From contig JAFGND010000025.1 in assembly GCA_016927185.1 (NCBI GenBank), positions 15,889 through 79,888 on the forward strand: 64,000 bases of DNA, given 5' to 3'. A program made the translations under genes and the position numbers. Below, piece after piece: positions 14,578-31,635 of this stretch; within the stretch, counting starts at the first letter, position 1; the number at the start of each line of letters is the position of its first letter. Origin of the DNA: Candidatus Coatesbacteria bacterium. GTDB taxonomy: Bacteria; JAFGND01. Under the pieces are notes generated by a model. The model had not been told where the DNA came from, ran no database searches, and saw only the letters and a program-made list of their open reading frames with translations.

Positions 14578-16338
14578 TCAATTAAGCTTTATAAGCTTGT
14601 CAGTATGCTCTCTGGAGCCTGTCCTAACTTTTATTATATATACTCCATTTTTGAAGGAACTGGTATCAGTCGTTATCAAGTGATTTCCTGCAGTATAAGA
14701 TCTTGATGCGTATGATTTTACAAGTCTTCCTGTAATATCATAAATAAGCACTTCAACATTATCTGTCTGTTTCAGATTGAAGTTAATCTTCAGTTTGTCA
14801 TTGAAAGGATTTGGAGATATCTTTACTCTCTCAGGTAAATGAAAATAGGATTTCTCTTTTGTTTCAAAACCAGTCTTGGTGAAATATAAGTCTATTACCT
14901 TGATTTCTCCTTCTGCAACAGTGAATGTCTGTGACTGAGGAGTGTCTCCAAGTAATATTGCTACAAGGGTATATGTTCCGGGAACAAGCAGATGTTTATA
15001 ACTTCCAAATGAATTAGAGAATACTGCTGAGGCTTTTTCGTTATCAAACAATTCAGCTATCTCTACAAGTACATTTGGTATTGGCTTGCCGTTCAGTTTA
15101 TTATATGTTTTTCCTGTTACCTGTGTCATATTAAGCCCAGCTTTCAGGAATTCCTTTGTTCCCTCGAAAGCATTCTCTATGGTTGGAAGAATATACTCAG
15201 CAGATGGGAAAAATCCACCTTCATCAGAGGAATTCAGTTCTATTGTATATGCATAGGTATGACCAGCTGCATATAACCAGTCATCGCTTCCGCCATAAGT
15301 AGGATATAGCTCATAACCTCTTTGTCCAGTATATCCCATTGTTGTGGCAGCTGCATTTCCAATTTTCCTGAATACTGCATCCTTCTTTGAAGCTTCGCTG
15401 TAACAACTCCAAGGCCACAGAACCAGCTCTCCATATGAATGAAAACTCAATGAAAGTAGTGGCTTTTTGGCAAGAGTGAAACTTCTTATTATCTGGATTT
15501 CAGGTTCACTAAACTGGGATGGACCTCTGTATGTTGGGCTGTTTGGATCAGTATCTCCTGATTCCCACATATATGCATAATTCCTGTTAAGATCAACTCC
15601 ATCTGCTCCATATCCTCCATAAGAATAATCCAGTACTCCGTTCGAATTGTTGTCCCTGAAATCCTTGCGCCACATTTGCTGCTCACTGTCAGTTGAATTG
15701 AAAACAAAATCATAACCATCTGGATTCACAATAGGAAGGAACCATAGCTCATAATTGTCTATCCATTCCTTGTAATCAAGTACGCTGCTGTAACCTTCCA
15801 CAAGTGTGTTCATAATATACATTACGGCTGAAACTGACATAGGTTCCCTTGCATGATGCAATCCCATTATCATGAAAATAGGCTCATCTTCATCAGTCGC
15901 AACATTGTCAGATACTTTTGCTACAAGCATATCAAAGCCTTTGTAATACGTCTGTTTGCCAGGATAACCATTCTTTTTTACCCAGGAATCTCCAGCATCA
16001 AAGTACTTGACTATACCTGGAAATCGCGTCTGGAGACTCATGATCTGTTCATAGACTTCTGAATAATCAAGATAATCAGGATCTATTCCTCCTATCATTT
16101 TCTTTAGTATAGTTCCGGAATAACCCAGTCTTTTGAGTTTCTCTATCTGCACAGGAGTAACAAGTAAATGAGCAGTCTTATTTGGAAGTATTGCTGCTAC
16201 ATCAAAGCCTGCTTTATAGAGTTTTGCTATTAGCTCAGGCGTAATTCCCCTTAATTCATATGTATATAGCGGAGCAGATGAGAAAAGCCCTGCATACATA
16301 ATTAAAATAAAGGTCAGTACAACAAAAAATATTTTCAT
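14578..16338 (-). CDS. M14-family zinc carboxypeptidase with T9SS C-terminal domain
   Basis: Signal peptide. 'GLHHAREPMS' (HxxE zinc motif of M14). C-terminal 'KISPNPFNDKLKINF…VEVLIYDITGRLV…NGVYIIKV' is a classic T9SS CTD. Confidence 0.8.
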   Translation of the reverse strand: MKIFFVVLTFILIMYAGLFSSAPLYTYELRGITPELIAKLYKAGFDVAAILPNKTAHLLVTPVQIEKLKRLGYSGTILKKMIGGIDPDYLDYSEVYEQIMSLQTRFPGIVKYFDAGDSWVKKNGYPGKQTYYKGFDMLVAKVSDNVATDEDEPIFMIMGLHHAREPMSVSAVMYIMNTLVEGYSSVLDYKEWIDNYELWFLPIVNPDGYDFVFNSTDSEQQMWRKDFRDNNSNGVLDYSYGGYGADGVDLNRNYAYMWESGDTDPNSPTYRGPSQFSEPEIQIIRSFTLAKKPLLSLSFHSYGELVLWPWSCYSEASKKDAVFRKIGNAAATTMGYTGQRGYELYPTYGGSDDWLYAAGHTYAYTIELNSSDEGGFFPSAEYILPTIENAFEGTKEFLKAGLNMTQVTGKTYNKLNGKPIPNVLVEIAELFDNEKASAVFSNSFGSYKHLLVPGTYTLVAILLGDTPQSQTFTVAEGEIKVIDLYFTKTGFETKEKSYFHLPERVKISPNPFNDKLKINFNLKQTDNVEVLIYDITGRLVKSYASRSYTAGNHLITTDTSSFKNGVYIIKVRTGSREHTDKLIKLN

Positions 16339-16396: not shown

Positions 16397-18163
16397 TTAA
16401 TTGATTTTCAATGCCTTCTTTATAAATATTTTATCCGCTACTCTGCATCTTAATATATAAACTCCATTACTCATGTTGCTGGAATTAAACCTGACTCCAT
16501 GATTACCAGAAGGATAAGAAGCCTTGACTAGTGTCTTGATAAGTCTTCCAGTCAGATCAAAGACCTCGACTAAAACATCAGATTTTTCACTGAGATTGAA
16601 GCTTATATTAAGCTCATTTCTGAAAGGGTTTGGAGCTAATTTTAAAGCTTCGGGAAGAATTTTTTGTGCAGTCTCGTTATTCTTGAAGCCGGCATAATCA
16701 AAATAAAAGTCTATTTCCTTTATTTCCTTGTCTGCAACAGTGAATGGTATTGTCTGTTTTGGATTAGCTCCATATTCTGCCTCAAGTGTATAATTTCCCG
16801 GAACCAATAAATAACGATATCTTCCGAATTCGTTTGTTTTCCTTGGAGTCCAGTGATTTGGATCATTAAGTTCCCTTATTGTGACTTTTACACCCTTGAT
16901 TGGATTTCCTGTTCCCCTAAGGAATGCTCTTCCAGTAACCTGTGTTGACAAACCATTTACAAAGAAAGCCCTCAAGCCTGACCATACTTTTTTCTGAGTG
17001 GGTTCTATCATTTCTGCTGGTGGAAAAAATCCGCCTTCATTATCTGTATTCATTTCTATTGTATAAGGATATGTACCAAGTTCAGCATATAACCAGTCAT
17101 CACTGGTTCCATAGCATGGATAAAGTTCCACTGCCTGTTCGGGAGTATAACCCATAGGAACTGCTGATTCTCTGCCGATCTTAGACAGAAGAGCTGCTTC
17201 CGTTGATGCAGAATAATAGCATCCCCATGGCCATAATACCAATCCTGAATAAGAATGCAAACTAACTGAAATAACTGGTTTCTTTGATAATGTCAAAGTT
17301 CTTATAACCTGAACCTCAGGTTCACTGAATGGATAAGGTCCGCGATACGTAGCAGAATACTGTGAATTATCACCTCTGCTCCATTCAAAAGAATAGTTCC
17401 TGTTCAAATCAACTCCATCAAGTCCATTGGCGCTACTACCGAAGTCTGCTTTGTGATTATTATTGTTATCTCTCAGATTCTTTCTCTGATTTTTTTCCCT
17501 GTTGTCATGATAATTAAATGATACATTATGACCATCTGGGTTTAACAATGGTACAAACCATATCTCATAAGAATCTACCCAGTTCTTGTATTCCGAGTTT
17601 GTTGCATATTGCTCTATGAGCTGCTGCATTGCATAAACCGAAACCTCAACTGTCATTGCCTCTCTTGCATGATGCAATGCCATGATAAGTAAAACAGGCT
17701 CATCTTCATCGGAATTTACATTATCAGATACCTTGAGTCCCATAATATCATAATCCTGATAATACCATTGATTATATTGCTTGTAATTGTTTGTCTTTAC
17801 CCATGGGTCACCCAGATCATAAAGCTTTGCAATGCCTGGATAATTTGAAGCAAGTCTCTGCATTTCCGTAAGAAGTTCATTATAATCAGTATATGCAGGA
17901 TCAAGCCCCTTGATATTGCTGTTTATCTCTCTCTTTATTACGCCAGAATAGCCAAGCGTTTTCAATTTTTCTATTTCATTCGCAGTAGCGAAAATGTGGG
18001 TGAATTTTCTAGGCATAACAGCTGCAACATCAAAACCTCTTGAAATTAGATCACCATTTTGTGAGCTCGTAAGGCCTTGAATTTCATATACATAAATGGG
18101 TTCGTCTGAGGATGCATAAGAGATAAAAAAGATAATAATACAAAAAGCAATTAATGTTTTCAT
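16397..18163 (-). CDS. M14-family zinc carboxypeptidase with T9SS C-terminal domain (tandem paralog)
   Basis: 'ALHHAREAMT'. C-terminal 'LAPNPFRNELNISF…VLVEVFDLTGRLI…NGVYILRC'. Homologous along its length to 14578-16338. Confidence 0.8.
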   Translation of the reverse strand: MKTLIAFCIIIFFISYASSDEPIYVYEIQGLTSSQNGDLISRGFDVAAVMPRKFTHIFATANEIEKLKTLGYSGVIKREINSNIKGLDPAYTDYNELLTEMQRLASNYPGIAKLYDLGDPWVKTNNYKQYNQWYYQDYDIMGLKVSDNVNSDEDEPVLLIMALHHAREAMTVEVSVYAMQQLIEQYATNSEYKNWVDSYEIWFVPLLNPDGHNVSFNYHDNREKNQRKNLRDNNNNHKADFGSSANGLDGVDLNRNYSFEWSRGDNSQYSATYRGPYPFSEPEVQVIRTLTLSKKPVISVSLHSYSGLVLWPWGCYYSASTEAALLSKIGRESAVPMGYTPEQAVELYPCYGTSDDWLYAELGTYPYTIEMNTDNEGGFFPPAEMIEPTQKKVWSGLRAFFVNGLSTQVTGRAFLRGTGNPIKGVKVTIRELNDPNHWTPRKTNEFGRYRYLLVPGNYTLEAEYGANPKQTIPFTVADKEIKEIDFYFDYAGFKNNETAQKILPEALKLAPNPFRNELNISFNLSEKSDVLVEVFDLTGRLIKTLVKASYPSGNHGVRFNSSNMSNGVYILRCRVADKIFIKKALKIN

Positions 18164-18432: not shown

Positions 18433-21400
18433 TTAACTTGTAAATCCGAATTTCTTGTCTTTTCCTAATAGCATTGTTGATAGTTTTTCAAAATCAGCTG
18501 ACATTTCAGGGAATTTTTCAGATATTCTCGAAATGGAAATCTCTTCCTTCAACTCCTTAAGCCATGTTCTTGCAGCAGGTTGCATTTTCATTATTATTTC
18601 CCTGAAGAGACTTACCGGAATTACCTGCTTGCCTTTGTTCTGATTGATACTATCCTGAAAAACCTTTTGTATGCATAATTGGTAAGCATTATCCATTTCT
18701 GCAAATGAAAAGCCAATGCTTGCATTAATTGTCTCAGTAACATCCTGCCCTTGAAACTTGCTTTCAAGATATTCCTTTCTTTCACTTTCGTCTGGAAGAG
18801 AGAAATAAACAAAACGATCAATTCTACCTGTAGAAAGAAGTGAAGATGAAACCATATGAGGATTTTTTGTAGTCCCTATAAAGTAAACAAATGTATTTTT
18901 TCCCTGTAGTGCATCAAGTTCAAGCTGGAACTGAGCAATCAATTCATTTGTCGTTTGCTTCTGCCATAATATATCAATGTCATCTACCAGAATCAAGGAA
19001 GGAGACTGTTCTATTGCGGTATTAAATAAATTAGCAATGTTCTTCGAAGCATTACCACTCCATAAATCTAGAAGCTCACTTCCCTTGACTGGTATCAAGG
19101 ATAAATCAGCTTCTCCTGCCAGACAATATGCACAAAAGCTCTTACCTGTACCTGGTGCTCCATAAAACAGGAAGCCTCTTGATAAATCAAGTCCATAATT
19201 CCTGGCTAGCTCCTGTTCTTTCATTGGAAGCAGTACTTCCTGTTTCAGTATTTCTTTCACGGATTTCAATCCGATCATGGTCTTGAAATTCCTGTCAGTT
19301 ACTTTCAATATCTGGAATTTTGCTAATCCTCTTTGCTGATCACTTCCTGCATATATCATTTTCTTGTGTATTCTAGCCTGGTACTTAAGCTCGCATGCGA
19401 GTTCCTGGAATTTATCATTTAGTGATGAAGGATCAATAGCAGCAGAACACGATTCGAACCATCCCCATAATTTGGGTTTTACCAGATTTATTGAATTCTT
19501 GACTGCCTCGAAATCAACAGGTGGGGCTTGAATCCTTGCTGCTGTACTGTCAGGGCGAGTATTCTCTTTTATGACCTTTGCAAATTGAGATTGCGAAGCA
19601 AGATAACATATATTTTCTATTTCCGCACCACTGTAACCTTCAGTCAATTTAGATAATGTCTTCCATTCTTCGTCAGTCAATTGAGGTGGCAATTTGAATT
19701 TATGTTTGAACATATCCAGCCTGGCTTGAATGGTCGGTACCCCAATGTAAATCAATCTGTCAATCCTTCCGGGTCTCAATATTGCCTCATCGATTGCCCA
19801 TGGTCTATTGCTTGCACCTATCACCATTATTTCCTCATCATTCGAGCCGAAACCATCAAGTTCAACGAGGAGCTGGTTTACCATTTCCAGATGAACGCTA
19901 GTTTGTGACCTGTCAACAGATTCTCTCTTACCGCAGAGAATATCAAGCTCATCAAGAAAAACAACGCATGGTGTATGATTCCCTGCAAACTTGAAAAGAT
20001 TCTGTATGTTTCTTGCACCATTTCCAACCCACATATCAACTATTTCTGATACTTTCACATTGATAAGTCCTGCCTGGAATCTTGCTGAAATCGCTTTTGC
20101 AAGCATAGTCTTGCCACATCCCGGAGGACCATAAAGCAGGATTCCCCTGTTTGCCTTCAAGCCATAATGCCTTGCTAGTTGAGGATATTCAAGAGGTGCA
20201 AATATTTCCTGATAAAGAGTTTCTTTTACATCTGCAAGCCCCATTACATCATTGAATGTCACATCATTGACTCGTGAGAGAGAGAAGATTGAAAGCCCTC
20301 TTGACGCACTTCCACTTGATACAGGCATTTTTTTCTTCTGTCTGTAATACCTTTCCATTTCTTCCTTTAATGCCATATATTTACTTTCCAGAACCTCAGA
20401 TTCTATATTTCTGTAGCAATCATCAAACCAGTCTTCCAGCGTAGGCTGGATTTCTTTCTGTGCTTCAAGAAGAAGTGGCATATCTATCAATATCTCTTTT
20501 TCCTGCTGTACAGCTGTTGATAGTGCCTTGCTTGCAGCAATATCAGTTATATTCTGGATTTCCGCTCCACTGTATTGATCTGTTTCCTGTGCCAGCCTCC
20601 TGTAATCAATATTATCTGAAATTGGTCTGTTTTCAAGATTAAGTCTGAATATCTCTGTTCTCATATCTTCATCAGGAACACCTACATAGAACATTCTGTC
20701 CAGTCTTCCTGGTCTTAGTGCTGCTGGATCCAGAGCCCATGGTCTGTTAGTAGCACCAACAATAAGTATTTGCCCCTCGCTTCTGCTGAGATTACCCATT
20801 TCTGCCAGAAATTGATTAACAGCTTTTCTTTGTTCTTCATGCATATTGACTGCCCTGTTAGTAAGGAAGGCATCCAGTTCATCAAGCAGGATCAGAGAAG
20901 GAGCATTTTCTTTTGCAAATTTAAACAGATTAGTGATATTTATTGCTGAGGTTCCCAGCCATACTCCTGAAATATCTGATGATTTCACATCGATGAAATT
21001 CATGCCTGTTTCACCACAAAGTGCTTGCATTATCAGAGATTTTCCACATCCCGGAGGACCATAAAGCAGGATTCCCCTGGTTAGATCAATCTGATAACGC
21101 TTAGCCTGAGCTGGATAACGAAAGGGGAGTACTACTTCCTCATAGAGTCTTTTCTTAAGGTCTTCGAAACCAGCTATCCTTGAAAAGTCCATTCCAGTGA
21201 TTTTCTGGACAGTGAATGTGGATAAACCTTTCTTCAGATCTTCATCATTTAGATACATTTCCTTATGAAAGGTCTGAATAGTCTGAGTGAAGAAACTTCT
21301 TACTAGTGAAACATCCTCTCCTTCCATGAAATTAAGAGAATCAAGTTCTTCTTTTGAAGAGGAGGAATTAATAAAAGCTCTGATTCTTTCTTTAGCAAGA

Positions 21401-22224
21401 TCAGTCTCTATATTAAGCTTATCTGCCCATTTGTAAGTATAAAGATTTATGAAGTGGACTTCATAAACCTCTTTTAAATCAGCGAGAAGTCTGGGTTGTT
21501 CCAGATTTATTGCAGCCGCTTCATTAATAAGCTCCTTGGCTTTTGGAGAGGAAAAAGGTAACATTGCAAGAGCAAAAGCTTCATAAAAATAGAAATTACG
21601 ATTTATTATATTTTCATCATACTTCATGGCAATATCAATACAATTCTTGTAGTCTTTGTCTATCTCGCTTTTCTGGAATCTATTTCTCATTGAATCTATT
21701 GTATATTTGAAATAAAGACATCTTACTGTTTCCCTTGCAATTCTTATATTCTTGGAATTGGGAAGTCCCTGAGAAAGGAACTCCAAACCGAGTTTTGCCC
21801 CGAAATCATAACCATTGAAGCGTTCCTGCATATCAAGCTCTTCATATAAACCAAGAAGCCTGTAACCTAAAACACCCATTTCGGGATAAATGAAACTTTT
21901 CTTGAATTCACCATGCATTTTCCTTAAGGCAATCAAAGCCTCTCCAAATATCTTCTTGGAATAGGTATCCTTTTCGAAATTGGCAAGCCCTCTTACTGCC
22001 TTGTCTTCTTCAATGAAGTTGTTCAAGGCATCATCTGAATAAAAAGTTGCATAATATATTATTACCTGAAGTAACCAGTTCTCAGGAAGAGAGTAATAGT
22101 ATTTGAAAGCTAACTGGAAAGCCATCATCAAGTTGTCTCCCTCGAAAAGGCAATTTATGGCTTCCCGCAAATCATTTTCAAATTGCTTTCTATCAAACTT
22201 TGCAGCAGGTGGTGTTGGTGACAT
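18433..22224 (-). CDS. Triple-AAA+ ATPase (three tandem classic-clade AAA modules) with ~330-aa helical N-terminal domain
   Basis: Walker A in three places ('ILLYGPPGCGKS', 'ILLYGPPGCGKT', 'FLFYGAPGTGKS'). Each is followed by Walker B (LILLDELD / VVFLDELD / LILVDDID) and second-region Arg ('RPGRLDR', 'RPGRIDR', 'STGRIDR'). Confidence 0.8.
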   Translation of the reverse strand: MSPTPPAAKFDRKQFENDLREAINCLFEGDNLMMAFQLAFKYYYSLPENWLLQVIIYYATFYSDDALNNFIEEDKAVRGLANFEKDTYSKKIFGEALIALRKMHGEFKKSFIYPEMGVLGYRLLGLYEELDMQERFNGYDFGAKLGLEFLSQGLPNSKNIRIARETVRCLYFKYTIDSMRNRFQKSEIDKDYKNCIDIAMKYDENIINRNFYFYEAFALAMLPFSSPKAKELINEAAAINLEQPRLLADLKEVYEVHFINLYTYKWADKLNIETDLAKERIRAFINSSSSKEELDSLNFMEGEDVSLVRSFFTQTIQTFHKEMYLNDEDLKKGLSTFTVQKITGMDFSRIAGFEDLKKRLYEEVVLPFRYPAQAKRYQIDLTRGILLYGPPGCGKSLIMQALCGETGMNFIDVKSSDISGVWLGTSAINITNLFKFAKENAPSLILLDELDAFLTNRAVNMHEEQRKAVNQFLAEMGNLSRSEGQILIVGATNRPWALDPAALRPGRLDRMFYVGVPDEDMRTEIFRLNLENRPISDNIDYRRLAQETDQYSGAEIQNITDIAASKALSTAVQQEKEILIDMPLLLEAQKEIQPTLEDWFDDCYRNIESEVLESKYMALKEEMERYYRQKKKMPVSSGSASRGLSIFSLSRVNDVTFNDVMGLADVKETLYQEIFAPLEYPQLARHYGLKANRGILLYGPPGCGKTMLAKAISARFQAGLINVKVSEIVDMWVGNGARNIQNLFKFAGNHTPCVVFLDELDILCGKRESVDRSQTSVHLEMVNQLLVELDGFGSNDEEIMVIGASNRPWAIDEAILRPGRIDRLIYIGVPTIQARLDMFKHKFKLPPQLTDEEWKTLSKLTEGYSGAEIENICYLASQSQFAKVIKENTRPDSTAARIQAPPVDFEAVKNSINLVKPKLWGWFESCSAAIDPSSLNDKFQELACELKYQARIHKKMIYAGSDQQRGLAKFQILKVTDRNFKTMIGLKSVKEILKQEVLLPMKEQELARNYGLDLSRGFLFYGAPGTGKSFCAYCLAGEADLSLIPVKGSELLDLWSGNASKNIANLFNTAIEQSPSLILVDDIDILWQKQTTNELIAQFQLELDALQGKNTFVYFIGTTKNPHMVSSSLLSTGRIDRFVYFSLPDESERKEYLESKFQGQDVTETINASIGFSFAEMDNAYQLCIQKVFQDSINQNKGKQVIPVSLFREIIMKMQPAARTWLKELKEEISISRISEKFPEMSADFEKLSTMLLGKDKKFGFTS
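20114..20149 (-). repeat. 36-nt exact direct repeat (copy 2) inside the AAA gene, encoding 'RGILLYGPPGCG' of module 2
   Basis: Identical to 21044-21079. Confidence 0.8.
21044..21079 (-). repeat. 36-nt exact direct repeat (copy 1) inside the AAA gene, encoding 'RGILLYGPPGCG' of module 1
   Basis: Identical to 20114-20149. Confidence 0.8.
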
Positions 22225-22239
22225 TTCACTCCTTTAAAA

Positions 22240-23595
22240 CTATTTGGTGGTTGAAATCCTTTTTTCCATCAAACTGTCAAATCTTTTTGAGTAATTCTGT
22301 AATAATGCAGGTAATTTAGACAACTCTATATCATTCAGTGGAGGAAAAGAAATCAACCTGTTTTTCAGTGGATTAACATTCCTTCCTCCAACTTTTATCC
22401 TGTAATCCAGGTGAGGACCTGTACTTAATCCTGTTGAACCGACATATCCAATAACTCTTCCTGTTTTTACGAATGTGCCTTTGTTTACTCCTTTTGCAAA
22501 ACTGTTCAAATGTCCATAATAAGTGACAACTCCTGCCATATGCTTTATTGCAATCATGTTTCCGTATCCTCCACTCCTTCCCTTCATGACAACAGTACCT
22601 GATGAAGCTGCTCGAACTGGAGTTCCTTTTTTTGCAACAAAGTCTATTGCAAGGTGAGGTCTGTATCTCTTTAGAATAGGATGCATTCTTCTAATTCTAT
22701 AATTACTGGATATCCTTTTGAATCTTAACGGTATTATTAATGCAATTCTGTGAAGGCACTTTCCTGTTTCAGTATAATACAGACCTTCCCCTGGATCCTT
22801 TTCAAGAATAGGAAGAGAATCATCTTCAGCTACAACTTCTTCCTGTTTCAATGATGAAGGATAAAAAGCCAACTGGTATGTCCTGTCAGTTGTTTCTGCC
22901 TTGCTCCACCATAACTGCTTGAATTCTCTTCTTCCTCCGGGTAAAACCTGTTCAGTTATCAGGAATGAAAAGACAGTCCCTTTTTCTCTGCATTTCTTTG
23001 TTCCTATATATCTTGCCCAGAATTGTATTGCTTGCTTGATAAAAGCTGGATTATTATATTTCTCGGCAAGCATTGGCTGCATTCTTGTTGAGAGAGTGCA
23101 AACCAAGGCTCTTTCCTGAAGCCCTTCCTTCATTGTTACGCACTGCATAAGCCATCCATGAGAAGTCCTGTAACCCCGGTATATCTCCTTGCTTTCTCTT
23201 TGAAGTTCAAGACTGTCAATTGATCCATCAGCATTCTTTGAAAATAATGTTATTTTATCTCCCTTCTGAGATATTCCAACATCCTTGTTCTCCTTGAAAG
23301 CTTCAACCAGGCTATCAATCCTGTTCTCAGGTTGTCCTATTCTCAGAAAAAAGTCGTTCCATGTCTCCCTTGTTTTCACTTCAATTAATTCTGGATAGTA
23401 ACCTGAAGGTTTAATTTTTTCCTCCACCTTCACAGGTTCTTCTTTTTTTTCGCTTTTCCTTGATATTTCAATGAATAATCCTCTTACACTTATAAAAACA
23501 AGGAAAATACCAATAATAAGAATAAAAAGAAGTCCATAAGGCAAGAATCTGTTCCAAATGATGAGGTTTTTCCATATATCCTTAAGGAAATTCAT
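22240..23595 (-). CDS. Membrane-anchored M23/LytM-family metallopeptidase
   Basis: N-terminal TM helix. C-terminal 'GYVGSTGLSTGPHLDYRIKVGGRNVNPL' is the M23 HxH/HLH zinc motif region. Overlaps the upstream gene by 4 nt (atga). Confidence 0.75.
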   Translation of the reverse strand: MNFLKDIWKNLIIWNRFLPYGLLFILIIGIFLVFISVRGLFIEISRKSEKKEEPVKVEEKIKPSGYYPELIEVKTRETWNDFFLRIGQPENRIDSLVEAFKENKDVGISQKGDKITLFSKNADGSIDSLELQRESKEIYRGYRTSHGWLMQCVTMKEGLQERALVCTLSTRMQPMLAEKYNNPAFIKQAIQFWARYIGTKKCREKGTVFSFLITEQVLPGGRREFKQLWWSKAETTDRTYQLAFYPSSLKQEEVVAEDDSLPILEKDPGEGLYYTETGKCLHRIALIIPLRFKRISSNYRIRRMHPILKRYRPHLAIDFVAKKGTPVRAASSGTVVMKGRSGGYGNMIAIKHMAGVVTYYGHLNSFAKGVNKGTFVKTGRVIGYVGSTGLSTGPHLDYRIKVGGRNVNPLKNRLISFPPLNDIELSKLPALLQNYSKRFDSLMEKRISTTK

Positions 23596-25739
23596 TTTAC
23601 TGTTTCTTCTTTTCCTGCAATCATTTCTATAAGCCGTGATATCTGTTTTGAATACTTCGGATCATTTATCAGGAAGTTATAGTATATGGCTTTCATCAAG
23701 TTTTCATTAGCACTTTTTTCCATTTGTAGCATATATTGTGACCATGCCAGGACAGTGTATGCTGGTGTCCATTTACTCCTATGCTTTATTATTTCAGAAG
23801 CAATCTCTGCTGATAATAAATACTGCTTATTGATTAGAGCCAGTTCTGCATGAATAAGCTTAATTGAAGTTAGATCAGGATGCTTGCTAGCGTAAGATGA
23901 CATGAGTTTATATGAATCAAGATAATTTTTTTTCTTGAAAAGCAAACAGGCCTTTACAAACTCTGACTCTTCTGGATTATTCCTGAGTTTTTTGGAGATA
24001 TTTTTTAAAAGAAAAAGCCTTATCTTGCCTACCATGAATTGAGACAATACAAGCAAAGAATCAGCATTTTCAAGACTCATAAGGTACTTGCCTTCTTCTG
24101 TCTTCGGATCAACAAGGAAATAATCAACTTCCGAAACACTATTGAAGTCGCTTATTCCATTTTCATGGAGAACGAATCTTGTCTTGTTACTTAATCCAGG
24201 CAGCGCAGACCAGGAAGCACCCAACTTCTTGTTTCCAACAATCTCTGCAACCTCCCTGCTTGTAGCAAGTTGAGAAAACTGCTGATTGTTATTATTAGCA
24301 GAGATATGAATGACAAGGAAATATGAATTCACCAGGAAAAGAAATCCAGCGAAATATTTGACATAGTTCAGGTTGAGATTGAGTTTTTCTTTTCTCATGA
24401 ACATGAGAATCAATATCGCTGCAATCAAGGATATCAAATCGTGTAAATAGGCTGGTTTAGTGAATTTCAATATCATCATATCCTCGTCATGCATATACAT
24501 CATATATCTTTGTGGAATGAACTCACCAGCAGCAAAAGTGAATCTCAAGAACGTGTAGCAGACAATTGCTAGTATTGGCAAGAGAATCAAGTAATGTAAT
24601 AATGAGAAGTCTGGGTTCTCGAAAATATTCTTTTTCTTCATCACTTTCCACATTTCGATGATTACTATTGGCATGGGAAGCAGAAGCATCATTTCATATC
24701 TTAATGGACAATATGTATTCAGGGAAAGATAGCATGGTATAAGTAAAAGCATCAGGATACTCCATTTTACATATAATCTCAGATTAGCTCCATATTGTTT
24801 TACTGAATAAATTGATGCAATACCTAAAGCCAGATAGCCAAGAATCATTTGAGCAGGAGCTTGCTGGGCAAGTAAAGAAAAAGTTCCTATTCTTCTTAAG
24901 CCATCAATATAATCATATATGGAAGTTATCATTGGTTGGGCTTTTGTTATAGTCAAATATGCATTTTTCCATTCCTGGTAATCAGGCAAAATAAGTATAA
25001 AAAGATATAGAATGAATGTAGCAAATGCTCCAGATAGAAAAAAGACTAACCTGTTCCTTGCTTCTCTTCTACCATTAAATGGCAACAGGAAATCCCATAG
25101 CAAAGAGATGAAAGTCACTAATACTATACTTGAAGCTGCAGCTTTTATTCCCATTGCAGCAAGAACCATCAATGACCCTCCCAGAGATATCAAGTATTTA
25201 TTATTCTTTAGTATAAGGAGCAATCCTGTCATTACTAAGGCAAACATCGGAAATTCAAGAAGCGCTAGCTTGCCATAAGCATAGAATGGTATGCAGAGAA
25301 CGAATATCAAGCAGCCTATAAAAGAATGAAGTTCATCGTTTTCCTTTCTCAATATTGAAAAATAGATGAATATCAGTCCTAATGCAGAGAGAATGCTTAT
25401 CAATCTAGCCGAGAAGAAAGAGACACCTATAACTTTGAAAACAGAATACTGAATTATTGAAAGAAATGATGTCAGATAGAATCTTGGCCAATTCCCCTCA
25501 GGTTTCCATGAGCCGAAATATATCTTGTTGATCGCAGGTGCTGCCCAGAAAGCTTCATCAGAGAAAGGTCCTGCAGACCAGCTCATCCCGAGCAGGGGAT
25601 CCCCCTCTGTTTCATGAAATAAAAGGAAAGCAGATATAATAAGCAGAATAATGAAACATATCTTGACTTTCGGGATTCGTATTTTTCGTTCCTTTACTGT
25701 ACTTGATGAACGCAATGTTTTTGATTTTTTCTTTGCCAT
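23592..25739 (-). CDS. GT-C fold glycosyltransferase (PMT_2 / family 39/83-like) with C-terminal TPR region; TMTC-like architecture
   Basis: About 12 TM helices. First periplasmic loop 'FSDEAFWAAPAINKIYFGSWKPEGNWPRFYLTSF…FSARLISILSALGLIFIYF' fits the PMT_2/ArnT loop-1 'DE' pattern. Last ~150 aa are soluble and TPR-like. Confidence 0.55.
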   Translation of the reverse strand: MAKKKSKTLRSSSTVKERKIRIPKVKICFIILLIISAFLLFHETEGDPLLGMSWSAGPFSDEAFWAAPAINKIYFGSWKPEGNWPRFYLTSFLSIIQYSVFKVIGVSFFSARLISILSALGLIFIYFSILRKENDELHSFIGCLIFVLCIPFYAYGKLALLEFPMFALVMTGLLLILKNNKYLISLGGSLMVLAAMGIKAAASSIVLVTFISLLWDFLLPFNGRREARNRLVFFLSGAFATFILYLFILILPDYQEWKNAYLTITKAQPMITSIYDYIDGLRRIGTFSLLAQQAPAQMILGYLALGIASIYSVKQYGANLRLYVKWSILMLLLIPCYLSLNTYCPLRYEMMLLLPMPIVIIEMWKVMKKKNIFENPDFSLLHYLILLPILAIVCYTFLRFTFAAGEFIPQRYMMYMHDEDMMILKFTKPAYLHDLISLIAAILILMFMRKEKLNLNLNYVKYFAGFLFLVNSYFLVIHISANNNNQQFSQLATSREVAEIVGNKKLGASWSALPGLSNKTRFVLHENGISDFNSVSEVDYFLVDPKTEEGKYLMSLENADSLLVLSQFMVGKIRLFLLKNISKKLRNNPEESEFVKACLLFKKKNYLDSYKLMSSYASKHPDLTSIKLIHAELALINKQYLLSAEIASEIIKHRSKWTPAYTVLAWSQYMLQMEKSANENLMKAIYYNFLINDPKYSKQISRLIEMIAGKEETVK

Positions 25740-25831
25740 TTTTTATTACCCAATCTCATACTCATTATAGAAAAGTCAAAATAAATGTGATTTGACTTGA
25801 CCAAAGCATGAAAAATATATCCCTTGATTAA

Positions 25832-27094
25832 GTGAAAAGGAATGCATTTGTTTTTCTGGCTTTTATAATGATCGCCTGTTCAAGCATGTCTAGCAAAGCC
25901 AGAAATGAAGATCAAAAAACTGACACCAAAGAAGAAATCTCAGAGGAAATGAAAAAAGAAGGTATCCGGAAAGTGCTTACTGGAATAGATGTTCTTGAAA
26001 GAGATTCTTTCAAGATTCTCAAAGGCAAGAGAATAGGTTTGATAACAAATCATTCCGCCCAAAATAGTAATGGAATTAGTACAGTTGAACTGCTTTCCAG
26101 GAATACAAGACTTGTGAAATTGTTCGCTCCAGAACATGGTATAGAAGGAAGTCATGGAAAACCTTTCCCTGGTTCCTGGAATTATGATTATGGTATTCCT
26201 GTCATAAGTTTATACTCAAAGTCAAAAAAACCTTCATCTTCTGATCTGGACGATATTGATGCTTTAGTATTCGATATCCAATCTGCTGGAGCAAGATATT
26301 ATACCTATATAACCACAATGGGATATTGTATGGAAGCAGCTGCAATGCATAACAAGGAATTCATTGTCCTGGACAGACCTAATCCTGCAGGAGGAAATAA
26401 AGTAAGTGGAGCTGTTCCCCTGAAAACAGAATGTAAAAGCTTCATCTGCTATTATTCACTTGCAACTCAGCATGGTATGACTATTGGAGAACTTGCTAAT
26501 ATGTTCAAGGAGGAAAAGAAGTTAAGTCTTGAACTGACAGTCATTCAAATGAAAGGATGGAGTAGAAGCATGACCTATGACAAAACAGGTCTTTCATATA
26601 TACCACCTTCTCCCAATCTCAAGAGACAGGAATCAATTATACCTTATTGCATACTTGGCTTTCTTGAGCATTCAAATATTTCGGTAGGCAGGGGAACTGA
26701 ATATCCGTTTGAAATCTATGGAGCTCCTTTTATTGATGAAAAGAATATGGTAGAAGAACTCAACAACTTCAGATTGAAAGGTGTTGAATTCAAGGAAGCG
26801 ACTTTTATTCCAGAAGGAAGTTTTTACAAAGGAAAACTGTGCAAAGGTTTCAGGATTCATATTTCTGATAAATCTGAATACGAGGGAAATGAAATTGCAA
26901 TGGCAGTATTGGTAACTCTTCACAAGCTGAATAAACATAATTTCAAGCCTTCAAATGCTTTTAACTCAGCATTTGGCTCAAGAAAGATTTCGAATCTGGT
27001 CTTCAGGGATACTGACATAAAGATACTGAAACATCTATTAATGAAACAGAATGAGACCTTTCTTGGCAGGAGAAAAAAATACTTGTTATATTGA
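25832..27094 (+). CDS. namZ: DUF1343-family exo-beta-N-acetylmuramidase (NamZ-like) lipoprotein
   Basis: Lipobox 'IACSS'. Motifs 'LFAPEHG', 'LVFDIQSAGARYYTYITTM', 'IVLDRPNPAGG', 'HGMTIGELA', 'PPSPN', 'VGRGTEYPFE' match the DUF1343 family consensus. Confidence 0.7.
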   Translation: MKRNAFVFLAFIMIACSSMSSKARNEDQKTDTKEEISEEMKKEGIRKVLTGIDVLERDSFKILKGKRIGLITNHSAQNSNGISTVELLSRNTRLVKLFAPEHGIEGSHGKPFPGSWNYDYGIPVISLYSKSKKPSSSDLDDIDALVFDIQSAGARYYTYITTMGYCMEAAAMHNKEFIVLDRPNPAGGNKVSGAVPLKTECKSFICYYSLATQHGMTIGELANMFKEEKKLSLELTVIQMKGWSRSMTYDKTGLSYIPPSPNLKRQESIIPYCILGFLEHSNISVGRGTEYPFEIYGAPFIDEKNMVEELNNFRLKGVEFKEATFIPEGSFYKGKLCKGFRIHISDKSEYEGNEIAMAVLVTLHKLNKHNFKPSNAFNSAFGSRKISNLVFRDTDIKILKHLLMKQNETFLGRRKKYLLY

Positions 27095-27189
27095 GCCTTG
27101 AACTGAATTTTTTTATTTACTTAATATGTCATGAAAATGATATTGTCATGGATAATTAATTAGATATTGTTTGGGGATAAAGGAGAGAT

Positions 27190-28407
27190 ATGGAAAGAAA
27201 TATTTATAAGAAAAGAAGAGATGCTTTATTCAAGCAGCTCCCCAAAGATTCTGTTGCTATAATTCCTTCATTATCGGGTAATCCAGAAAATCAGCCTTAT
27301 GATGCCAGTTTCTATTATCTGACTGGATTAATGCTTAATAATGCAATACTTGTAATGACAAAAGAGAAAAGCGTTGAGAAAGAAACCATATACAGGATGA
27401 AGATAGATCCTGTCTTATCTTTATGGGTATGCTCTCCTCCACCAGATGATGAGCTGAGGGCTAAAAGTGGTATAAAGGACCTGAAGGATTTTAGCTTAGA
27501 TGCTTTATTAGATACATTATACAATGAAGCTGCTAAAGGCATGAAGGATTTCTATCTTCACTATACCCCAAAGAAGCCAAATCTTCCATCTTCTTTATCA
27601 CAAGCACTTGTTGAGAAAATAAGAAGGTATTTGCCTCATATAAACTTGATATGGCTTTCTCCCATAATTTACGAGCTGAGAAGAGTCAAAACTCCTCAAG
27701 AAGTAACTTTATTCAAGGAAGCAATACGCATTACAAAGAATGCAATTGTAAATGTTTTCTCTAGAAGATCGATATATCAGAATGAATGCCAGGTTTATGC
27801 AGATTATAGTGCTTCATTGATAAATGAACTGAACAGAAAAAGTGGCTTCAATGTAATTGTTGCAGCAGGGAAGAATGCAACAATACTGCATTATGATAAC
27901 AATAACTCCCCTATACATAATAATTCAATGGTCTTGATTGATGCAGGATGTGACTATGAAGGTTATAACAGTGATATAACCAGATGTTTTCCAAGAGGGA
28001 AACTATTCCCTGCAAAAGCAAAGCACATATATGAAGCAGTCTTGACAGCACAGGAGCTTATAATAAAATCAATCAAGCCCGGAGTTTCACTTCAGGAGAT
28101 AAATGATAATGCAAAAGATATTATTTTCAGGGTTTACAAAGATGCCAGGATAGTGAAAACACTAGATGAATTAAGCAAGGTCTATTATCATGGTGCAAGT
28201 CACTATTTGGGGCTAGAAGTCCACGATGTTGGTATAAGATCCAGACTTCTGAAACCTGGTTGTGTCCTGACCGTTGAACCTGGTTGTTATGTAGAAAAGC
28301 TTGGAATTGGGATAAGGATTGAAGATGATATCCTTGTCACTTCCTCGGGATATGAAAACCTTTCCTTTTCAATTCCGAAGAAGATAAAGGAGATTGAAGC
28401 ATTATAG
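27190..28407 (+). CDS. pepP: Xaa-Pro aminopeptidase (M24B)
   Basis: 'HGASHYLGLEVHDVG' and 'VLTVEPGCY' are the M24 pita-bread metal-ligand motifs. Confidence 0.75.
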   Translation: MERNIYKKRRDALFKQLPKDSVAIIPSLSGNPENQPYDASFYYLTGLMLNNAILVMTKEKSVEKETIYRMKIDPVLSLWVCSPPPDDELRAKSGIKDLKDFSLDALLDTLYNEAAKGMKDFYLHYTPKKPNLPSSLSQALVEKIRRYLPHINLIWLSPIIYELRRVKTPQEVTLFKEAIRITKNAIVNVFSRRSIYQNECQVYADYSASLINELNRKSGFNVIVAAGKNATILHYDNNNSPIHNNSMVLIDAGCDYEGYNSDITRCFPRGKLFPAKAKHIYEAVLTAQELIIKSIKPGVSLQEINDNAKDIIFRVYKDARIVKTLDELSKVYYHGASHYLGLEVHDVGIRSRLLKPGCVLTVEPGCYVEKLGIGIRIEDDILVTSSGYENLSFSIPKKIKEIEAL

Positions 28408-28410
28408 AAA

Positions 28411-29412
28411 ATGCAATTTAACATAAAACGTGCTTTTTCATTGATAGATTCTTTTACGAGAATAAAAGTTGCAGTTGTTGGTGATCTGATAGCTGATATT
28501 TACTGGAAAGGTACTTTAACAAGATTTTCAAGAGAAGCTCCTGTGCCAATTGTCAAGCTTGATGATGAGATATTAGTTCCCGGAGGAGCTGCCAATACAT
28601 CTGCTAATATAGCAAGCTTGAGTGGAAAATCCTTGTTGATTGGCAGATTTGGCAAGGATAACGAGGGAGACAGGCTAAGGGAAAATCTGAATAAAATAAA
28701 TGGATTGAGCGTTTATCCATTATTCAAGGACAACTTCAAAACCATAACAAAAATCAGGATAAAAGCTGGTAGCTTTCATACAAGACCTGCACAAATCCTC
28801 AGGATAGACAAGGAAAATGCTGAAATTCAGCTAACCGAAGAAGAAAATGAGGAAATAGTGACTGCCTTGAAAGGATGCGACGCAATAATTCTAAGCGATT
28901 ATGGTTATGGTAGTGCTTCCCCTGACTTGCTTTCATATATCAAGAAAAGAACAGGAAATCTGGTTATAATTTCAGTTGACTCAAGATACAGGATTAATGA
29001 ATTCATGGGTGCCAGTCTCTTGACTCCCAACGAAGAGGAAGCTGCTTATGCTTTGAAAGAAGAAAATATCCTTGATAATGATATTATTGCAGCTGGGAAA
29101 AAACTTCTCAGGATTTCTTCTGCACATAACCTGATAATTACAAGAGGACCTTTCGGCATGGCATATTTCTCGAAAAAAACCAGTGAAAAAATCCCTATTT
29201 GCGGAACTACTGATATTGTTGATAATACCGGGGCAGGGGACACTGTAATAGCAGCGGCAACTTTGTCACTAGCTTGTGGTGCTTCTCTGCGTGAGGCTGC
29301 AATAATTGCCAATTGTGCGGCTTCTGTTTCAGTAATGCAGGAAGGTGCAGTAGCAGTAAAACCAACAGTATTAAAAGATGCAGTTGCCCTGTTTTTGAAA
29401 CAGTATTTGTAA
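28411..29412 (+). CDS. D-glycero-beta-D-manno-heptose-7-phosphate kinase (HldE/RfaE kinase domain only; PfkB family)
   Basis: 'KVAVVGDLIADIYWKGTLTRFSREAPVPIV' matches the HldE domain-I N-terminus. 'DNTGAGDT' is the PfkB signature. No adenylyltransferase domain is attached. Confidence 0.7.
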   Translation: MQFNIKRAFSLIDSFTRIKVAVVGDLIADIYWKGTLTRFSREAPVPIVKLDDEILVPGGAANTSANIASLSGKSLLIGRFGKDNEGDRLRENLNKINGLSVYPLFKDNFKTITKIRIKAGSFHTRPAQILRIDKENAEIQLTEEENEEIVTALKGCDAIILSDYGYGSASPDLLSYIKKRTGNLVIISVDSRYRINEFMGASLLTPNEEEAAYALKEENILDNDIIAAGKKLLRISSAHNLIITRGPFGMAYFSKKTSEKIPICGTTDIVDNTGAGDTVIAAATLSLACGASLREAAIIANCAASVSVMQEGAVAVKPTVLKDAVALFLKQYL

Positions 29413-29421
29413 GGATTTCAA

Positions 29422-31635
29422 ATGCAAAAAGGATTGACAGCAGAATATAAAACCTCTTTTTATTTTGCTATTTCATTATCAGTAATATGTTTCTTTTTTT
29501 TTCAGTTTCTCATGGCAGATGATATTACATGGACCAACTGGGGTGAAGATGGAGGAGATTTTCTGGCATGTGCATCTATTCTTGGTATTCCTCACCCAAC
29601 TAGTTATCCATTTTATACACTGCTTCTAAAAGCATTTTTTCTGATATTTCCTTTTGGAAACATAGGCTTCAGGGGAAATTTGCTTTCATCAGTTTTTGCA
29701 TCATCAGGAATATACTTCTTTTATATGATTACATCAAGACTGCTTTCTTTCATTCCGCAGGTGAAGAAAGACAGAAAAGGAGTAATTTATGGATTGCCTT
29801 TGCTTGTATGTATCATACTTGCATTAAGCAGAATTTTCTTGAGCCAGGCAATAATTACTGAAGTATATTCCCTGAATGCACTAATCTTTTTAATGAGTAT
29901 TCATTTCCTTTTAAAATGGGTGTTTGAAAAGAAAACCAATTACTTGATATTTGTATTTTATTTACTGGGATTGGGTTTCAGCCACCATGGCAGCATAATT
30001 TTCTTCATCCCTCTTCTATTGTCTGTTTTGATAAGATTTAAAAAAAGATTAAATGCAAGAATTGCTTTTTTTTCAATATTCATATGGTTGATTGGTCTTA
30101 CTCCTTATCTATATGATCCATTAAGAGCAATCCAGAATCCTCATTTATCGTGGGGTACACCATATTGCTTTTCTAAATTCTATTGGATTATAACTGCTTC
30201 TCAATACAGGTACAGGATGTTCTCAAGACCATTTATGGAAAGTCTAAGAAAATTCCGTTCAAGTTATCATATTGAGCAACAGATTGGATACCTGGGAGTT
30301 TTCATATTCATCTGGACAGCAATTACTTTACTGTCAAGATTCAAGAAAGCAGGGAGAATACGAAGTAATTTCGGGATAATAGTCATGGGATTGTCTTTAT
30401 CATTTCTTGCTAATTTGATTTATTCATTCAATTACAATATTGCGGATATAAATGCTTATTATATACCAGGTTACATTATTGCTTGTATTTTTCTCTGTCT
30501 TGGAACAGGAATACTCATCAAGATATGGCAGGAGAGCTCTATTTTTTATCCAAAATCGTATTTACCTTTGGTAATTACACTGGTTTTATTGACTGCTCCA
30601 CTAATCCTGAACATCAGAAAATGCAATAGCAGGACAAAACAAGATGCAAAGGAATTTACAACAGAAGTATTCAATGCAGCAAAACCAAATGGAGTAATTC
30701 TTAGTGAATATGATGGCAGAACATTCGGGTTATGGTACAAAAGATATGGTCCCTTGAAAGATAAATCCCAGGTTTTCATTATTTATAAGTATCTTTTTAT
30801 ATGGGACTGGTATTTGGAGCATCTTCCAAAAGTAGCTAGCAGGCTTTTATATCCACCAAAATCACCTATTGTTGATGCATATTTATGTGATCTGATAACT
30901 CTTAACATTGGGAGATTGCCTTTGTATATGGTGCGGGAAGATCCAGTCATAAAAACGAACTGGGATCTTGTTAGATTATATGATGCAAAAATGCCTTTAT
31001 ATGAAATAAAAGAAAAAGCCAGACTTCCTGAGGTCAAGTATTCTGCAAAAGAAGATACAATGTTTATTGATATCAGTACATTTGCAAACAGCTGCTATAG
31101 TCAGGATCCATTCAGAATCGGTGATGTAAGTGGTAAACCTAATCATTTCATTGGGCTGGATGAAGGAGAATATAATTATCAAGGCATTCCATTCAAATTC
31201 ATGAAAGCTGTCACTGGCAAGGAGAATAAATTCAACTGCATTTCGACTTGCTTTTTATCAAGAACATCATTTAAAATTCCTCTTGTCCAGAAGAGAAGCA
31301 AGCATCTGGCTTTTGCATTGACTGGAGGTGCTATTGCAAACTATAAAGGAGCTGTCTTGAAACTCAAGGTAATATATAAAGATGGTATGAATGATGACTT
31401 TGTTCTTTACAGTTGCAAAGATATATATGAATATGGATTTAAAAAGTATGGAGCAGAAGCTCCTCCTCTTGAAAAAATAATATGGCAAAATAAAAAGGGA
31501 GCGTTTATTACTGGTTGTGAAATAGATTTGGACAATGAAAGAATTCCAGAGAAACTTGTTATAAGAAATGCTGGAATTGCAAACAACGCAGGAGTTTATC
31601 CAGGAGTGATTATCTTTGCAGTCACACAATATTGA
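29422..31635 (+). CDS. DUF2723-family polytopic membrane protein (TMEM260-like putative GT-C glycosyltransferase)
   Basis: N-terminal 'WGEDGGDFLACASILGIPHPTSYPFYTLL' resembles the DUF2723 signature. About 11 TM helices followed by a ~330-aa soluble C-terminal domain. Confidence 0.55.
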   Translation: MQKGLTAEYKTSFYFAISLSVICFFFFQFLMADDITWTNWGEDGGDFLACASILGIPHPTSYPFYTLLLKAFFLIFPFGNIGFRGNLLSSVFASSGIYFFYMITSRLLSFIPQVKKDRKGVIYGLPLLVCIILALSRIFLSQAIITEVYSLNALIFLMSIHFLLKWVFEKKTNYLIFVFYLLGLGFSHHGSIIFFIPLLLSVLIRFKKRLNARIAFFSIFIWLIGLTPYLYDPLRAIQNPHLSWGTPYCFSKFYWIITASQYRYRMFSRPFMESLRKFRSSYHIEQQIGYLGVFIFIWTAITLLSRFKKAGRIRSNFGIIVMGLSLSFLANLIYSFNYNIADINAYYIPGYIIACIFLCLGTGILIKIWQESSIFYPKSYLPLVITLVLLTAPLILNIRKCNSRTKQDAKEFTTEVFNAAKPNGVILSEYDGRTFGLWYKRYGPLKDKSQVFIIYKYLFIWDWYLEHLPKVASRLLYPPKSPIVDAYLCDLITLNIGRLPLYMVREDPVIKTNWDLVRLYDAKMPLYEIKEKARLPEVKYSAKEDTMFIDISTFANSCYSQDPFRIGDVSGKPNHFIGLDEGEYNYQGIPFKFMKAVTGKENKFNCISTCFLSRTSFKIPLVQKRSKHLAFALTGGAIANYKGAVLKLKVIYKDGMNDDFVLYSCKDIYEYGFKKYGAEAPPLEKIIWQNKKGAFITGCEIDLDNERIPEKLVIRNAGIANNAGVYPGVIIFAVTQY

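Follow-up and report, generated by a model that had tools for sequence, protein, structure and literature searches.

Do three adjacent minus-strand genes of Candidatus Coatesbacteria, which encode a GT-C glycosyltransferase (gene 1), an M23 endopeptidase (gene 2) and an ATPase with three AAA modules (gene 3), form one functional system of the cell envelope, or do they simply share a transcript? The genes are located at positions 18433 to 25739 of a stretch of 64,000 nucleotides (nt) of contig JAFGND010000025.1 (assembly GCA_016927185.1), which was analysed as a whole and is referred to as the window. The trio is a co-translated, lineage-restricted three-gene envelope operon, and the identities of all three genes are assigned with high confidence. 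It represents known part types in an undescribed, conserved and narrowly distributed combination, in which the architecture of gene 3, an orphan N-domain followed by an independently triplicated AAA module, is new.

Operon layout and conservation in a second genome

The genes, their junctions and the candidate promoter are arranged as follows.

18433 to 22224, minus strand: gene 3, a soluble ATPase of 1263 amino acids (aa) with an orphan N-domain and three classic-clade AAA modules (three PF00004 stretches)
22225 to 22239, minus strand: spacer of 15 nt with an AAAGGAG ribosome-binding site between genes 2 and 3 (junction sequence)
22240 to 23595, minus strand: gene 2, a MepM/Csd3-type bitopic M23 peptidoglycan endopeptidase of 451 aa (PF01551, homolog architecture)
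23592 to 23595, minus strand: ATGA start/stop overlap of genes 1 and 2 (the junction sequence reads AAAATGA)
23592 to 25739, minus strand: gene 1, a divergent GT-C (PMT_2/ArnT-like) glycosyltransferase of 715 aa (reading frame, phmmer, profile, AlphaFold2 (AF2) model and Foldseek)
25764 to 25791, minus strand: candidate sigma-70-like promoter 5' of gene 1 (ATCACA-16-TATAAT, 10 of 12 consensus matches)

All three open reading frames (ORFs) were obtained by ORF calling at exactly the positions of the three tightly packed minus-strand genes described in the initial annotation. The 4-nt overlap and the 15-nt distance reported there are both read in the junction sequences, the latter as TAG-TTTTAAAGGAGTGAA-ATG. 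A divergent intergenic region of 92 nt separates gene 1 from the namZ operon and holds the candidate promoter; within the trio, gene 1 is the only gene preceded by a promoter-like site. Downstream of the ATPase gene a gap of 269 nt was observed, and a strong promoter-like site (TTGACA-17-TATATT) precedes the next gene. These sigma-70-like sites are consensus matches only and no proof of function. Due to the promoter-like sites and gaps at both ends, the transcription unit would most simply consist of these three genes. No Rfam element was found in or around the operon, and the content of guanine and cytosine (GC) is flat across the region (0.36-0.39).

A Logan assembly from an independent run (L012, ERR14964774) is 99.1% identical over 3063 nt and spans both junctions; therefore the arrangement is no assembly artefact there. 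This independent support covers both intergenic junctions, which L012 reproduces, and the first 359 ATPase residues, with the junction of the second and third AAA modules (D2 and D3) situated outside, and a gene fusion or assembly artefact was rejected on these grounds. A fusion artefact within the ATPase gene was rejected as well: an ortholog in a second genome (L004) is colinear through the N-domain, D1 and D2 to residue 735, and an archaeal protein (P0004) is colinear through all three modules.

The second genome came to light in the M23 search: a contig of 5.4 kb from GCA_964396635.1, here L004, encodes an ortholog (P0123) with 55% identity. By tblastn, gene order and orientation are the same as in the window; the spacers measure 3 and 10 nt, and the nucleotide sequences are 69% identical. 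The encoded proteins are 38% (gene 1, residues 138-707), 55% (gene 2) and 77% (gene 3, residues 6-735, up to the contig end) identical, and the ATPase is the best-conserved protein of the trio, N-domain included (69%). At the start of the L004 contig (positions 1-121) the frame of the glycosyltransferase gene shifts by 1 nt near nt 100-120 and then continues as an intact ORF of 548 codons.

The initial annotation had considered that the adjacency might be confined to the genome of the window, which is not the case, as the trio recurs in clearly diverged form in L004. The synteny across genomes of the FCB group that it had envisaged was not observed either. The trio is confined to two lineages, and scans with peptide patterns of the N-domain revealed no further instance in GTDB representative genomes and JGI metagenomes and no relative of this domain in viral contigs. 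A candidate locus, L007, was dismissed as a false positive with 63% GC and no tblastn match.

The encoded proteins

Gene 3 is subdivided as follows.

21190 to 22224, minus strand: residues 1-345, orphan N-domain without Pfam or PDB sequence match, 69% identical to the L004 ortholog
20305 to 21189, minus strand: residues 346-640, AAA module D1 with Walker A GPPGCGKS, Walker B LILLDE, pore loop VWLG, an intact second region of homology (SRH) and a helical tail of ~45 aa
19330 to 20304, minus strand: residues 641-965, AAA module D2 with Walker A GPPGCGKT, Walker B VVFLDE, pore loop MWVG, an intact SRH and a tail of ~45 aa
18433 to 19329, minus strand: residues 966-1263, AAA module D3 with Walker A GAPGTGKS, Walker B LILVDD and a degenerate sensor-1/SRH (TTKNP...LLSTGR)

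Three separate PF00004 stretches together with AAA_lid_3 were observed in Pfam, and hydropathy analysis revealed no transmembrane (TM) segment, in good agreement with the cytoplasmic ATPase of 1263 aa in the initial annotation. Three modules are indeed present, but the description of all three as complete holds for D1 and D2 only. These are canonical, and judged by their motifs they look catalytically competent, with D2 as the best Pfam/NCBIfam stretch and a match to D2 of Cdc48. D3 keeps the pore-loop Trp, but its Walker B motif reads DD, and both its sensor-1 and its first arginine finger have degenerated; this module probably binds nucleotide and is weak in hydrolysis. An aromatic pore loop occurs in D1, D2 and D3, and each module ends in the same helical tail of ~45 aa (QP-L--W...). 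Mutual identities of the three modules are 38%, 33% and 30%.

A direct repeat of 49 nt (20104-20152 and 21034-21082) with 90% identity and 36 consecutive identical bases lies over the Walker A codons of D1 and D2; the corresponding two stretches of the L004 ortholog carry synonymous differences. Due to the fact that the repeat is 90% identical while D1 and D2 are 38% identical as proteins, and given the synonymous differences in L004, this suggests a short, recent gene-conversion tract in the lineage of the window.

The best PDB matches of gene 3 are Cdc48, p97 and VAT, colinear over D1 and D2, with residues 346-890 aligned to p97 202-708 (E about 1e-95). None of the NCBIfam models of CDC48, PAN, FtsH and IteA reaches its cut-off; for CDC48 (TIGR01243) the score is 502 bits against a cut-off of 803. 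The Cdc48-type N-domain (PF02359, PF02933) has no match in gene 3. An identity as FtsH does not apply either, as gene 3 has neither a TM segment nor PF01434 (M41) and falls below the cut-off of TIGR01241. Comparison of the N-domain with the N-regions of archaeal triple-AAA proteins by hhalign yielded no profile match. The domain is probably all-helical and likely represents the substrate- or adaptor-binding part of the ATPase.

Similarity of the ATPase to the IetA models of PADLOC (E=1e-85) and to IteA of NCBIfam (260 bits) brings up an anti-phage module of the IetAS type, with the ATPase as IetA and its neighbours as effectors. The IteA score (NF042959) has to be seen against a cut-off of 510 bits, and the models of Cdc48, PAN and FtsH score higher, which argues for generic classic-clade similarity. 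Furthermore, no IetS-like protease was found, both neighbours are without PADLOC match, the flanks are of housekeeping type without defence island or mobile element, and viral contigs yielded no relative. We consider this explanation scarcely credible, and the defence-system reading was rejected for its generic AAA similarity below cut-off and its missing partner.

Uncharacterised proteins that string together three, four or five classic-clade AAA modules were also observed in metagenomes (P0003-P0031; loci L001-L003). Examples are an archaeal protein with TPR and three AAA modules (P0004), an archaeal protein with three AAA modules (P0005) and an Acidimicrobiales "FtsH" with three AAA modules and M41 (~1170 aa). 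The three-module arrangement, regarded as unusual in the initial annotation, is therefore rare but not unique, with such proteins of three, four or five modules occurring in archaeal and actinobacterial metagenome data. In a module-by-module comparison, the modules are closest to their siblings in the same protein, with 67% and 64% identity in the archaeal proteins and 38% in gene 3. Since modules within each protein resemble each other more than their positional counterparts, the comparison indicates that the triplication of gene 3 arose inside its own lineage and that the multiplications in the various proteins were independent; shared ancestry with the archaeal triple-AAA proteins was ruled out by the same comparison. 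A literature search revealed no relevant published work on triple-AAA or Coatesbacteria envelope systems. Gene 3 offers a clean natural three-module classic AAA protein that stems from internal triplication and might assemble into three stacked rings or into a pseudo-hexameric dimer.

In case of gene 2, two features were delimited.

23491 to 23547, minus strand: residues 17-35, single N-terminal membrane anchor (Kyte-Doolittle peak 2.8)
22369 to 22659, minus strand: residues 313-409, M23 catalytic domain (Pfam stretch)

Peptidase_M23 (PF01551) matches with E=1.8e-30 and 105 bits, the cut-off being 28.7, and a predicted cytoplasmic tail of 16 residues is situated ahead of the anchor. With this domain and one N-terminal TM helix, the protein is the inner-membrane-anchored M23 endopeptidase that had been proposed. 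Residues H314-x3-D318, H362 and H395-L-D397 are invariant across the aligned subfamily, which argues for a catalytic endopeptidase; a degenerate, EnvC-like M23 activator was ruled out on the same residues. In NCBIfam, ShyC, MepM and ShyA match best, each with a score short of its equivalog cut-off (MepM NF008652: 99 bits, cut-off 341). Thousands of homologs share the Csd3_N2 plus M23 architecture. Many full-length homologs whose alignment extends through the central region of gene 2 carry an annotated Csd3_N2 domain (PF19425), which has no match in gene 2 itself. A clade-specific insertion ahead of the M23 domain is common to gene 2 and its L004 ortholog. As far as its sequence tells, gene 2 is an ordinary MepM/Csd3-like enzyme, predicted to cut peptidoglycan cross-links in the periplasm.

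For gene 1, four regions are distinguished.

25671 to 25739, minus strand: residues 1-23, basic N-terminal tail MAKKKSKTLRSSSTVKERKIRIP, with residues 1-20 disordered in the model
24288 to 25670, minus strand: residues 24-484, 13-helix transmembrane catalytic module (hydropathy, model helices, near-invariant family columns)
24000 to 24275, minus strand: residues 489-580, ArnT-like alpha/beta domain, predicted periplasmic (model strands 505-580, Foldseek match to ArnT)
23598 to 23963, minus strand: residues 593-714, single 3-repeat TPR-like module, predicted periplasmic (7-8 paired helices in the model)

The 715-aa protein has no match at all in Pfam, NCBIfam or PADLOC, even at E<=10; this includes PMT_2 (PF13231) and PMT (PF02366) of Pfam. 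A word-indexed search of 5.8 billion clusters returned only the protein itself (from a metagenome-assembled genome of Candidatus Coatesbacteria). Exhaustive phmmer against 1.84 billion representatives revealed one ortholog-level relative (P0242, E=3.7e-100) and 425 weaker matches with 22-35% identity over the membrane region, the nearest non-orthologous relatives ranging from E=1.5e-25 to 1e-10. When the query was aligned with 61 of the phmmer relatives, Pfam PMT_2 matched 57 of the 62 sequences and PMT matched 28. Because these relatives and not the query match PMT_2, the PMT_2 membership of gene 1 is transitive only. The family profile matches ArnT 5ezm (E=5.5e-23) and fungal Pmt4 (7e-8).

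An AF2 model computed from the family alignment reaches a predicted local distance difference test score (pLDDT) of 85.6 and a predicted template modelling score of 0.90, with pLDDT <50 at residues 1-3 and 10-20. Top PDB matches of this model in Foldseek are ArnT, ALG12, ALG9, STT3, PglB, Pmt4, PimE and EmbB, all of which are GT-C proteins; the best structure is ArnT 5f15 (E=2.7e-7), with an alignment that spans 614 columns. The helical module 593-714 matches RPAP3 TPR, Sti1 TPR2B and HOP TPR1 (TMt 0.73-0.83 over ~115-123 columns) and is without match to the TPR models of Pfam. Considering relatives, profile and model together, the proposed PMT_2-type GT-C enzyme with a C-terminal TPR region is well founded.

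Gene 1 retains the near-invariant residues D47, S55, D61-E62 (the acidic motif of the first loop), K199 and Y343-x-P345-x-R347-Y348, and 4 out of 17 near-invariant family positions are altered (R40L, P49L, R157K, G508A). As near-invariant residues including the Asp-Glu of the first loop are kept, the enzyme is probably catalytically active, with a polyprenyl-phosphate-linked sugar as its probable donor and an acceptor that would be located on the periplasmic side. Lys/Arg-rich loops alternate as predicted for an N-in topology (sequence and 13 model helices), and by the positive-inside rule we infer that the N-tail is cytoplasmic. Given 13 TM helices and this topology, the alpha/beta domain and the TPR-like module are predicted to lie on the periplasmic side.

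Possible functional coupling, its alternatives and the genomic neighbourhood

Several observations speak for cooperation of the three proteins. The operon is compact, with its ATGA overlap, the ribosome-binding site in the 15-nt spacer, a promoter-like site ahead of gene 1 only and the 269-nt gap at its end. Order, orientation and tight spacing are retained in a second genome, and the neighbourhood is rich in envelope and peptidoglycan functions (NamZ, a TMEM260-like GT-C protein and two secreted M14 proteins). The parts themselves also fit, with a probably active GT-C enzyme that has a TPR module predicted in the periplasm, invariant M23 catalytic residues and an ATPase with aromatic pore loops that is colinear with p97, and LbcA-CtpA offers a precedent for control of MepM. 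Functional coupling is a tentative conclusion, which we hold with somewhat less than even confidence; the envelope-remodelling or protein-extraction machine suggested in the initial annotation is likewise putative.

The main alternative is mere adjacency, in which a housekeeping MepM-like endopeptidase, a GT-C enzyme of envelope glycans or proteins and a general Cdc48-like quality-control unfoldase share a transcript whose order was kept by descent. The conserved stop/start overlap and short ribosome-binding spacers in both genomes, despite 69% nucleotide identity, speak against it, as do the fact that both genes flanking the housekeeping gene are lineage-specific innovations and the unusual occurrence of a soluble unfoldase gene among envelope genes. 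Yet the unequal divergence of the proteins (38% versus 77% identity) is expected from unrelated constraints, the M23 family is widespread in many different contexts, and GT-C relatives occur in ordinary glycosylation clusters. The next-best M23 relative after the L004 ortholog is only 32% identical. With so few genomes sampled from this lineage, the fact that all three orthologs are narrowly distributed is by itself no evidence of coupling, and their co-restriction weighs little. Mere adjacency is a serious possibility in which we have limited confidence.

Several further points weigh against coupling or the mechanism proposed below. The trio occurs in two lineages only, and relatives may have inherited the gene order. 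The L004 contig comprises 5.4 kb with the flanks beyond its ends, and equal synteny of the flanks would make the conservation uninformative. The frameshift at its start might stem from misassembly, or it is very recent and could mark incipient decay. In other phyla, relatives of the M23 protein occupy unrelated contexts and have no AAA or GT-C neighbour; M23 and AAA genes are also absent around the nearest non-orthologous relatives of gene 1, which are surrounded by ordinary glycosylation genes. The association is therefore not a general one. The window yielded no synthase of polyprenyl-phosphate sugars (GT2). Gene 3 has no protease domain or partner and no HbYX-type C-terminus (it ends ...KFGFTS), and the single-sequence AF2 model of its N-domain and D1 reaches a pLDDT of only 34.

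If the proteins are coupled, the TPR module of gene 1 might dock the endopeptidase in the periplasm, or the endopeptidase might be a glycosylation target of the GT-C enzyme. From the cytoplasmic face, the ATPase would engage the basic, disordered 23-residue N-tail of the glycosyltransferase or the 16-residue N-tail of the endopeptidase, which are proposed as handles because they are the only parts reachable from the cytoplasm. FtsH needs a cytosolic tail of ~20 residues to dislocate membrane proteins. By extracting or unfolding its membrane partners, the ATPase could set the activity level of the cell-wall hydrolase. We regard this specific extraction or turnover mechanism as unlikely. It is tempting to extend it to a bacterial machine that resembles endoplasmic-reticulum-associated degradation. 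A Cdc48-type motor would, via its N-domain, pull the glycosyltransferase and/or the endopeptidase out of the inner membrane and couple periplasmic glycosylation or TPR docking to ATP-driven control of hydrolase levels from the cytoplasm; it would assemble as a hexamer with three stacked tiers or as a dimer whose six modules make up a single ring. This extension is speculative and very improbable.

Another way of coupling would be a control of the FtsEX-EnvC type, with the ATPase acting on cytoplasmic loops of the GT-C protein and a conformational change switching the periplasmic TPR module, which would activate or release the M23 protein. FtsEX-EnvC, PcsB and RipC are precedents for a cytoplasmic ATPase coupled to an M23-family protein, and the topology fits, with a cytoplasmic ATPase, a polytopic protein with a periplasmic binding module and a periplasmic M23 protein. 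However, gene 3 is a classic-clade AAA protein whose three modules all keep an aromatic pore loop, the hallmark of substrate threading and not of an ABC-type mechanotransmitter. Moreover, the M23 catalytic residues are kept, unlike in the degenerate activators EnvC and NlpD, and the GT-C catalytic motif is kept as well, so that gene 1 is not a mere transducer. Such a control is improbable.

Should the three proteins really cooperate, gene 3 would provide the first example in bacteria of a Cdc48-like unfoldase devoted to enzymes of the envelope. The control of peptidoglycan hydrolases would in that case reach beyond periplasmic proteolysis (NlpI-Prc, LbcA-CtpA) to ATP-driven action from the cytoplasm and be linked to GT-C glycosylation. 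At present, the locus stands as a well-verified lineage-restricted operon from an uncultured phylum and not yet as a discovery.

Two tandem paralogous M14 zinc carboxypeptidase genes (14578-16338 and 16397-18163, both on the minus strand) are located directly downstream of the ATPase gene, followed by asd. Both proteins carry a CarboxypepD_reg domain and a C-terminal sorting domain of the type IX secretion system (T9SS). An M14 gene also adjoins a distant relative of the M23 gene in L010. The immediate vicinity of these T9SS-sorted proteins raises the alternative of an EccA-like chaperone of secretion or assembly, in which the ATPase would unfold or hold the GT-C protein, the M23 protein or the two M14 proteins before export. 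A helical N-domain joined to AAA modules recalls EccA and P0004 with its TPR and three AAA modules. The M14 genes, however, are 269 nt away and have their own strong promoter-like site, the NCBIfam match to EccA is weak (54 bits, cut-off 467), and the L004 contig ends before the M14 region. Cargo of the T9SS uses Sec and is not known to require an AAA protein. A role of this kind appears highly improbable.

Upstream, a divergent operon on the plus strand (25832-29412) encodes a NamZ exo-beta-N-acetylmuramidase, an M24 Xaa-Pro aminopeptidase and a PfkB/RfaE-like sugar kinase. It ends in a second GT-C gene of TMEM260-like type (29422-31635, plus strand; PF11028, E=6e-25, 737 aa). The nearest PMT_2 relative of gene 1 (P0243, L008) likewise adjoins a gene for a protein of TMEM260-type plus TPR architecture. 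The rest of the window is of housekeeping character (ribosomal protein S7, a tRNA cluster, def, pfk), and no mobile-element genes were found in the scanned flanks. On these grounds and because of the flat GC content, a horizontal island was rejected; the locus is chromosomal, as had been stated before, and lies within an envelope-rich neighbourhood.

Three further genes attracted attention. An ORF of 1120 aa (10078-13440, minus strand) overlaps the start of asd, with a weak DUF2460 stretch as its only domain match. Beside it, a bacterial WD40 beta-propeller protein of 398 aa is encoded (8591-9787, minus strand). Just past the TMEM260-like gene, a 732-aa protein (32251-34449, minus strand) combines N-terminal TPR repeats, PEGA and a C-terminal TonB_C domain as an unusual TonB-like protein.

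Comparison with known systems

Like ArnT and the bacterial PMT_2 proteins (GT83/GT39-type), gene 1 has a 13-TM GT-C fold with the Asp-Glu of the first periplasmic loop and the conserved Lys and Arg/Tyr positions, and it shares the C-terminal periplasmic alpha/beta domain with ArnT. Unlike these proteins, it is too divergent for the Pfam models, reaches at most 30% identity to any non-orthologous relative, carries an extra 3-TPR module and is without a lipid A modification context. The eukaryotic O-mannosyltransferases TMTC1-4 combine GT-C and TPR (PMC7801869), and similar to gene 1 their N-terminal GT-C membrane module is followed by TPR repeats on the non-cytoplasmic side. TMTCs, however, have a long TPR array, whereas the single 3-repeat module of gene 1 is separated from its TM module by an ArnT-like alpha/beta domain. 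The 715-aa protein is without match to DUF1736, and its nearest relatives are bacterial PMT_2 proteins, the nearest solved fold being bacterial ArnT. The label "TMTC-like", given initially, thus describes an architectural analogy and not membership, as neither a DUF1736 nor a PMT_2 Pfam match exists and only one TPR module is present.

With MepM (YebA) of E. coli, ShyA/ShyC of Vibrio and Csd3 of H. pylori, gene 2 shares the N-terminal anchor and the C-terminal M23 domain with H-x3-D and a distal His motif; the central Csd3_N2-type region of these proteins is shared by the full-length homologs of gene 2. Its distal motif is H-L-D instead of H-x-H, and H-L-D is common to the whole aligned subfamily. 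The protein is no MepM equivalog and MepM-like in architecture only.

Gene 3 resembles Cdc48, p97 and VAT in the colinear D1-D2 region with canonical Walker A and B motifs, aromatic pore loop 1 and SRH with arginine fingers. Instead of their double-psi barrel N-domain, it has the orphan N-domain of 345 aa. A bacterial precedent for a Cdc48-like protein is the actinobacterial Cpa (PMC6017811). In contrast to Cpa as well as Cdc48, p97 and VAT, gene 3 possesses a third, partly degenerate module and a tail of ~45 aa per module, and no proteasome context was observed. Metagenomic proteins with three AAA modules are colinear with gene 3 and ~30% identical over residues 326-1255, but they have unrelated N-domains, and the archaeal ones occur in housekeeping contexts without M23 or GT-C neighbour.

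The proposed joint action finds a functional analogy in NlpI-Prc and in LbcA-CtpA, a proteolytic complex with a TPR adaptor that controls MepM (PMC6050968). Both bring together a TPR module, a MepM-type hydrolase and the energy- or protease-driven removal of the latter. These systems are wholly periplasmic and rely on C-terminal processing proteases that need no ATP, whereas the operon described here encodes a cytoplasmic motor and no protease. Our hypothesis, by analogy, is that the mechanism would represent a cytoplasmic counterpart of NlpI-Prc and LbcA-CtpA.

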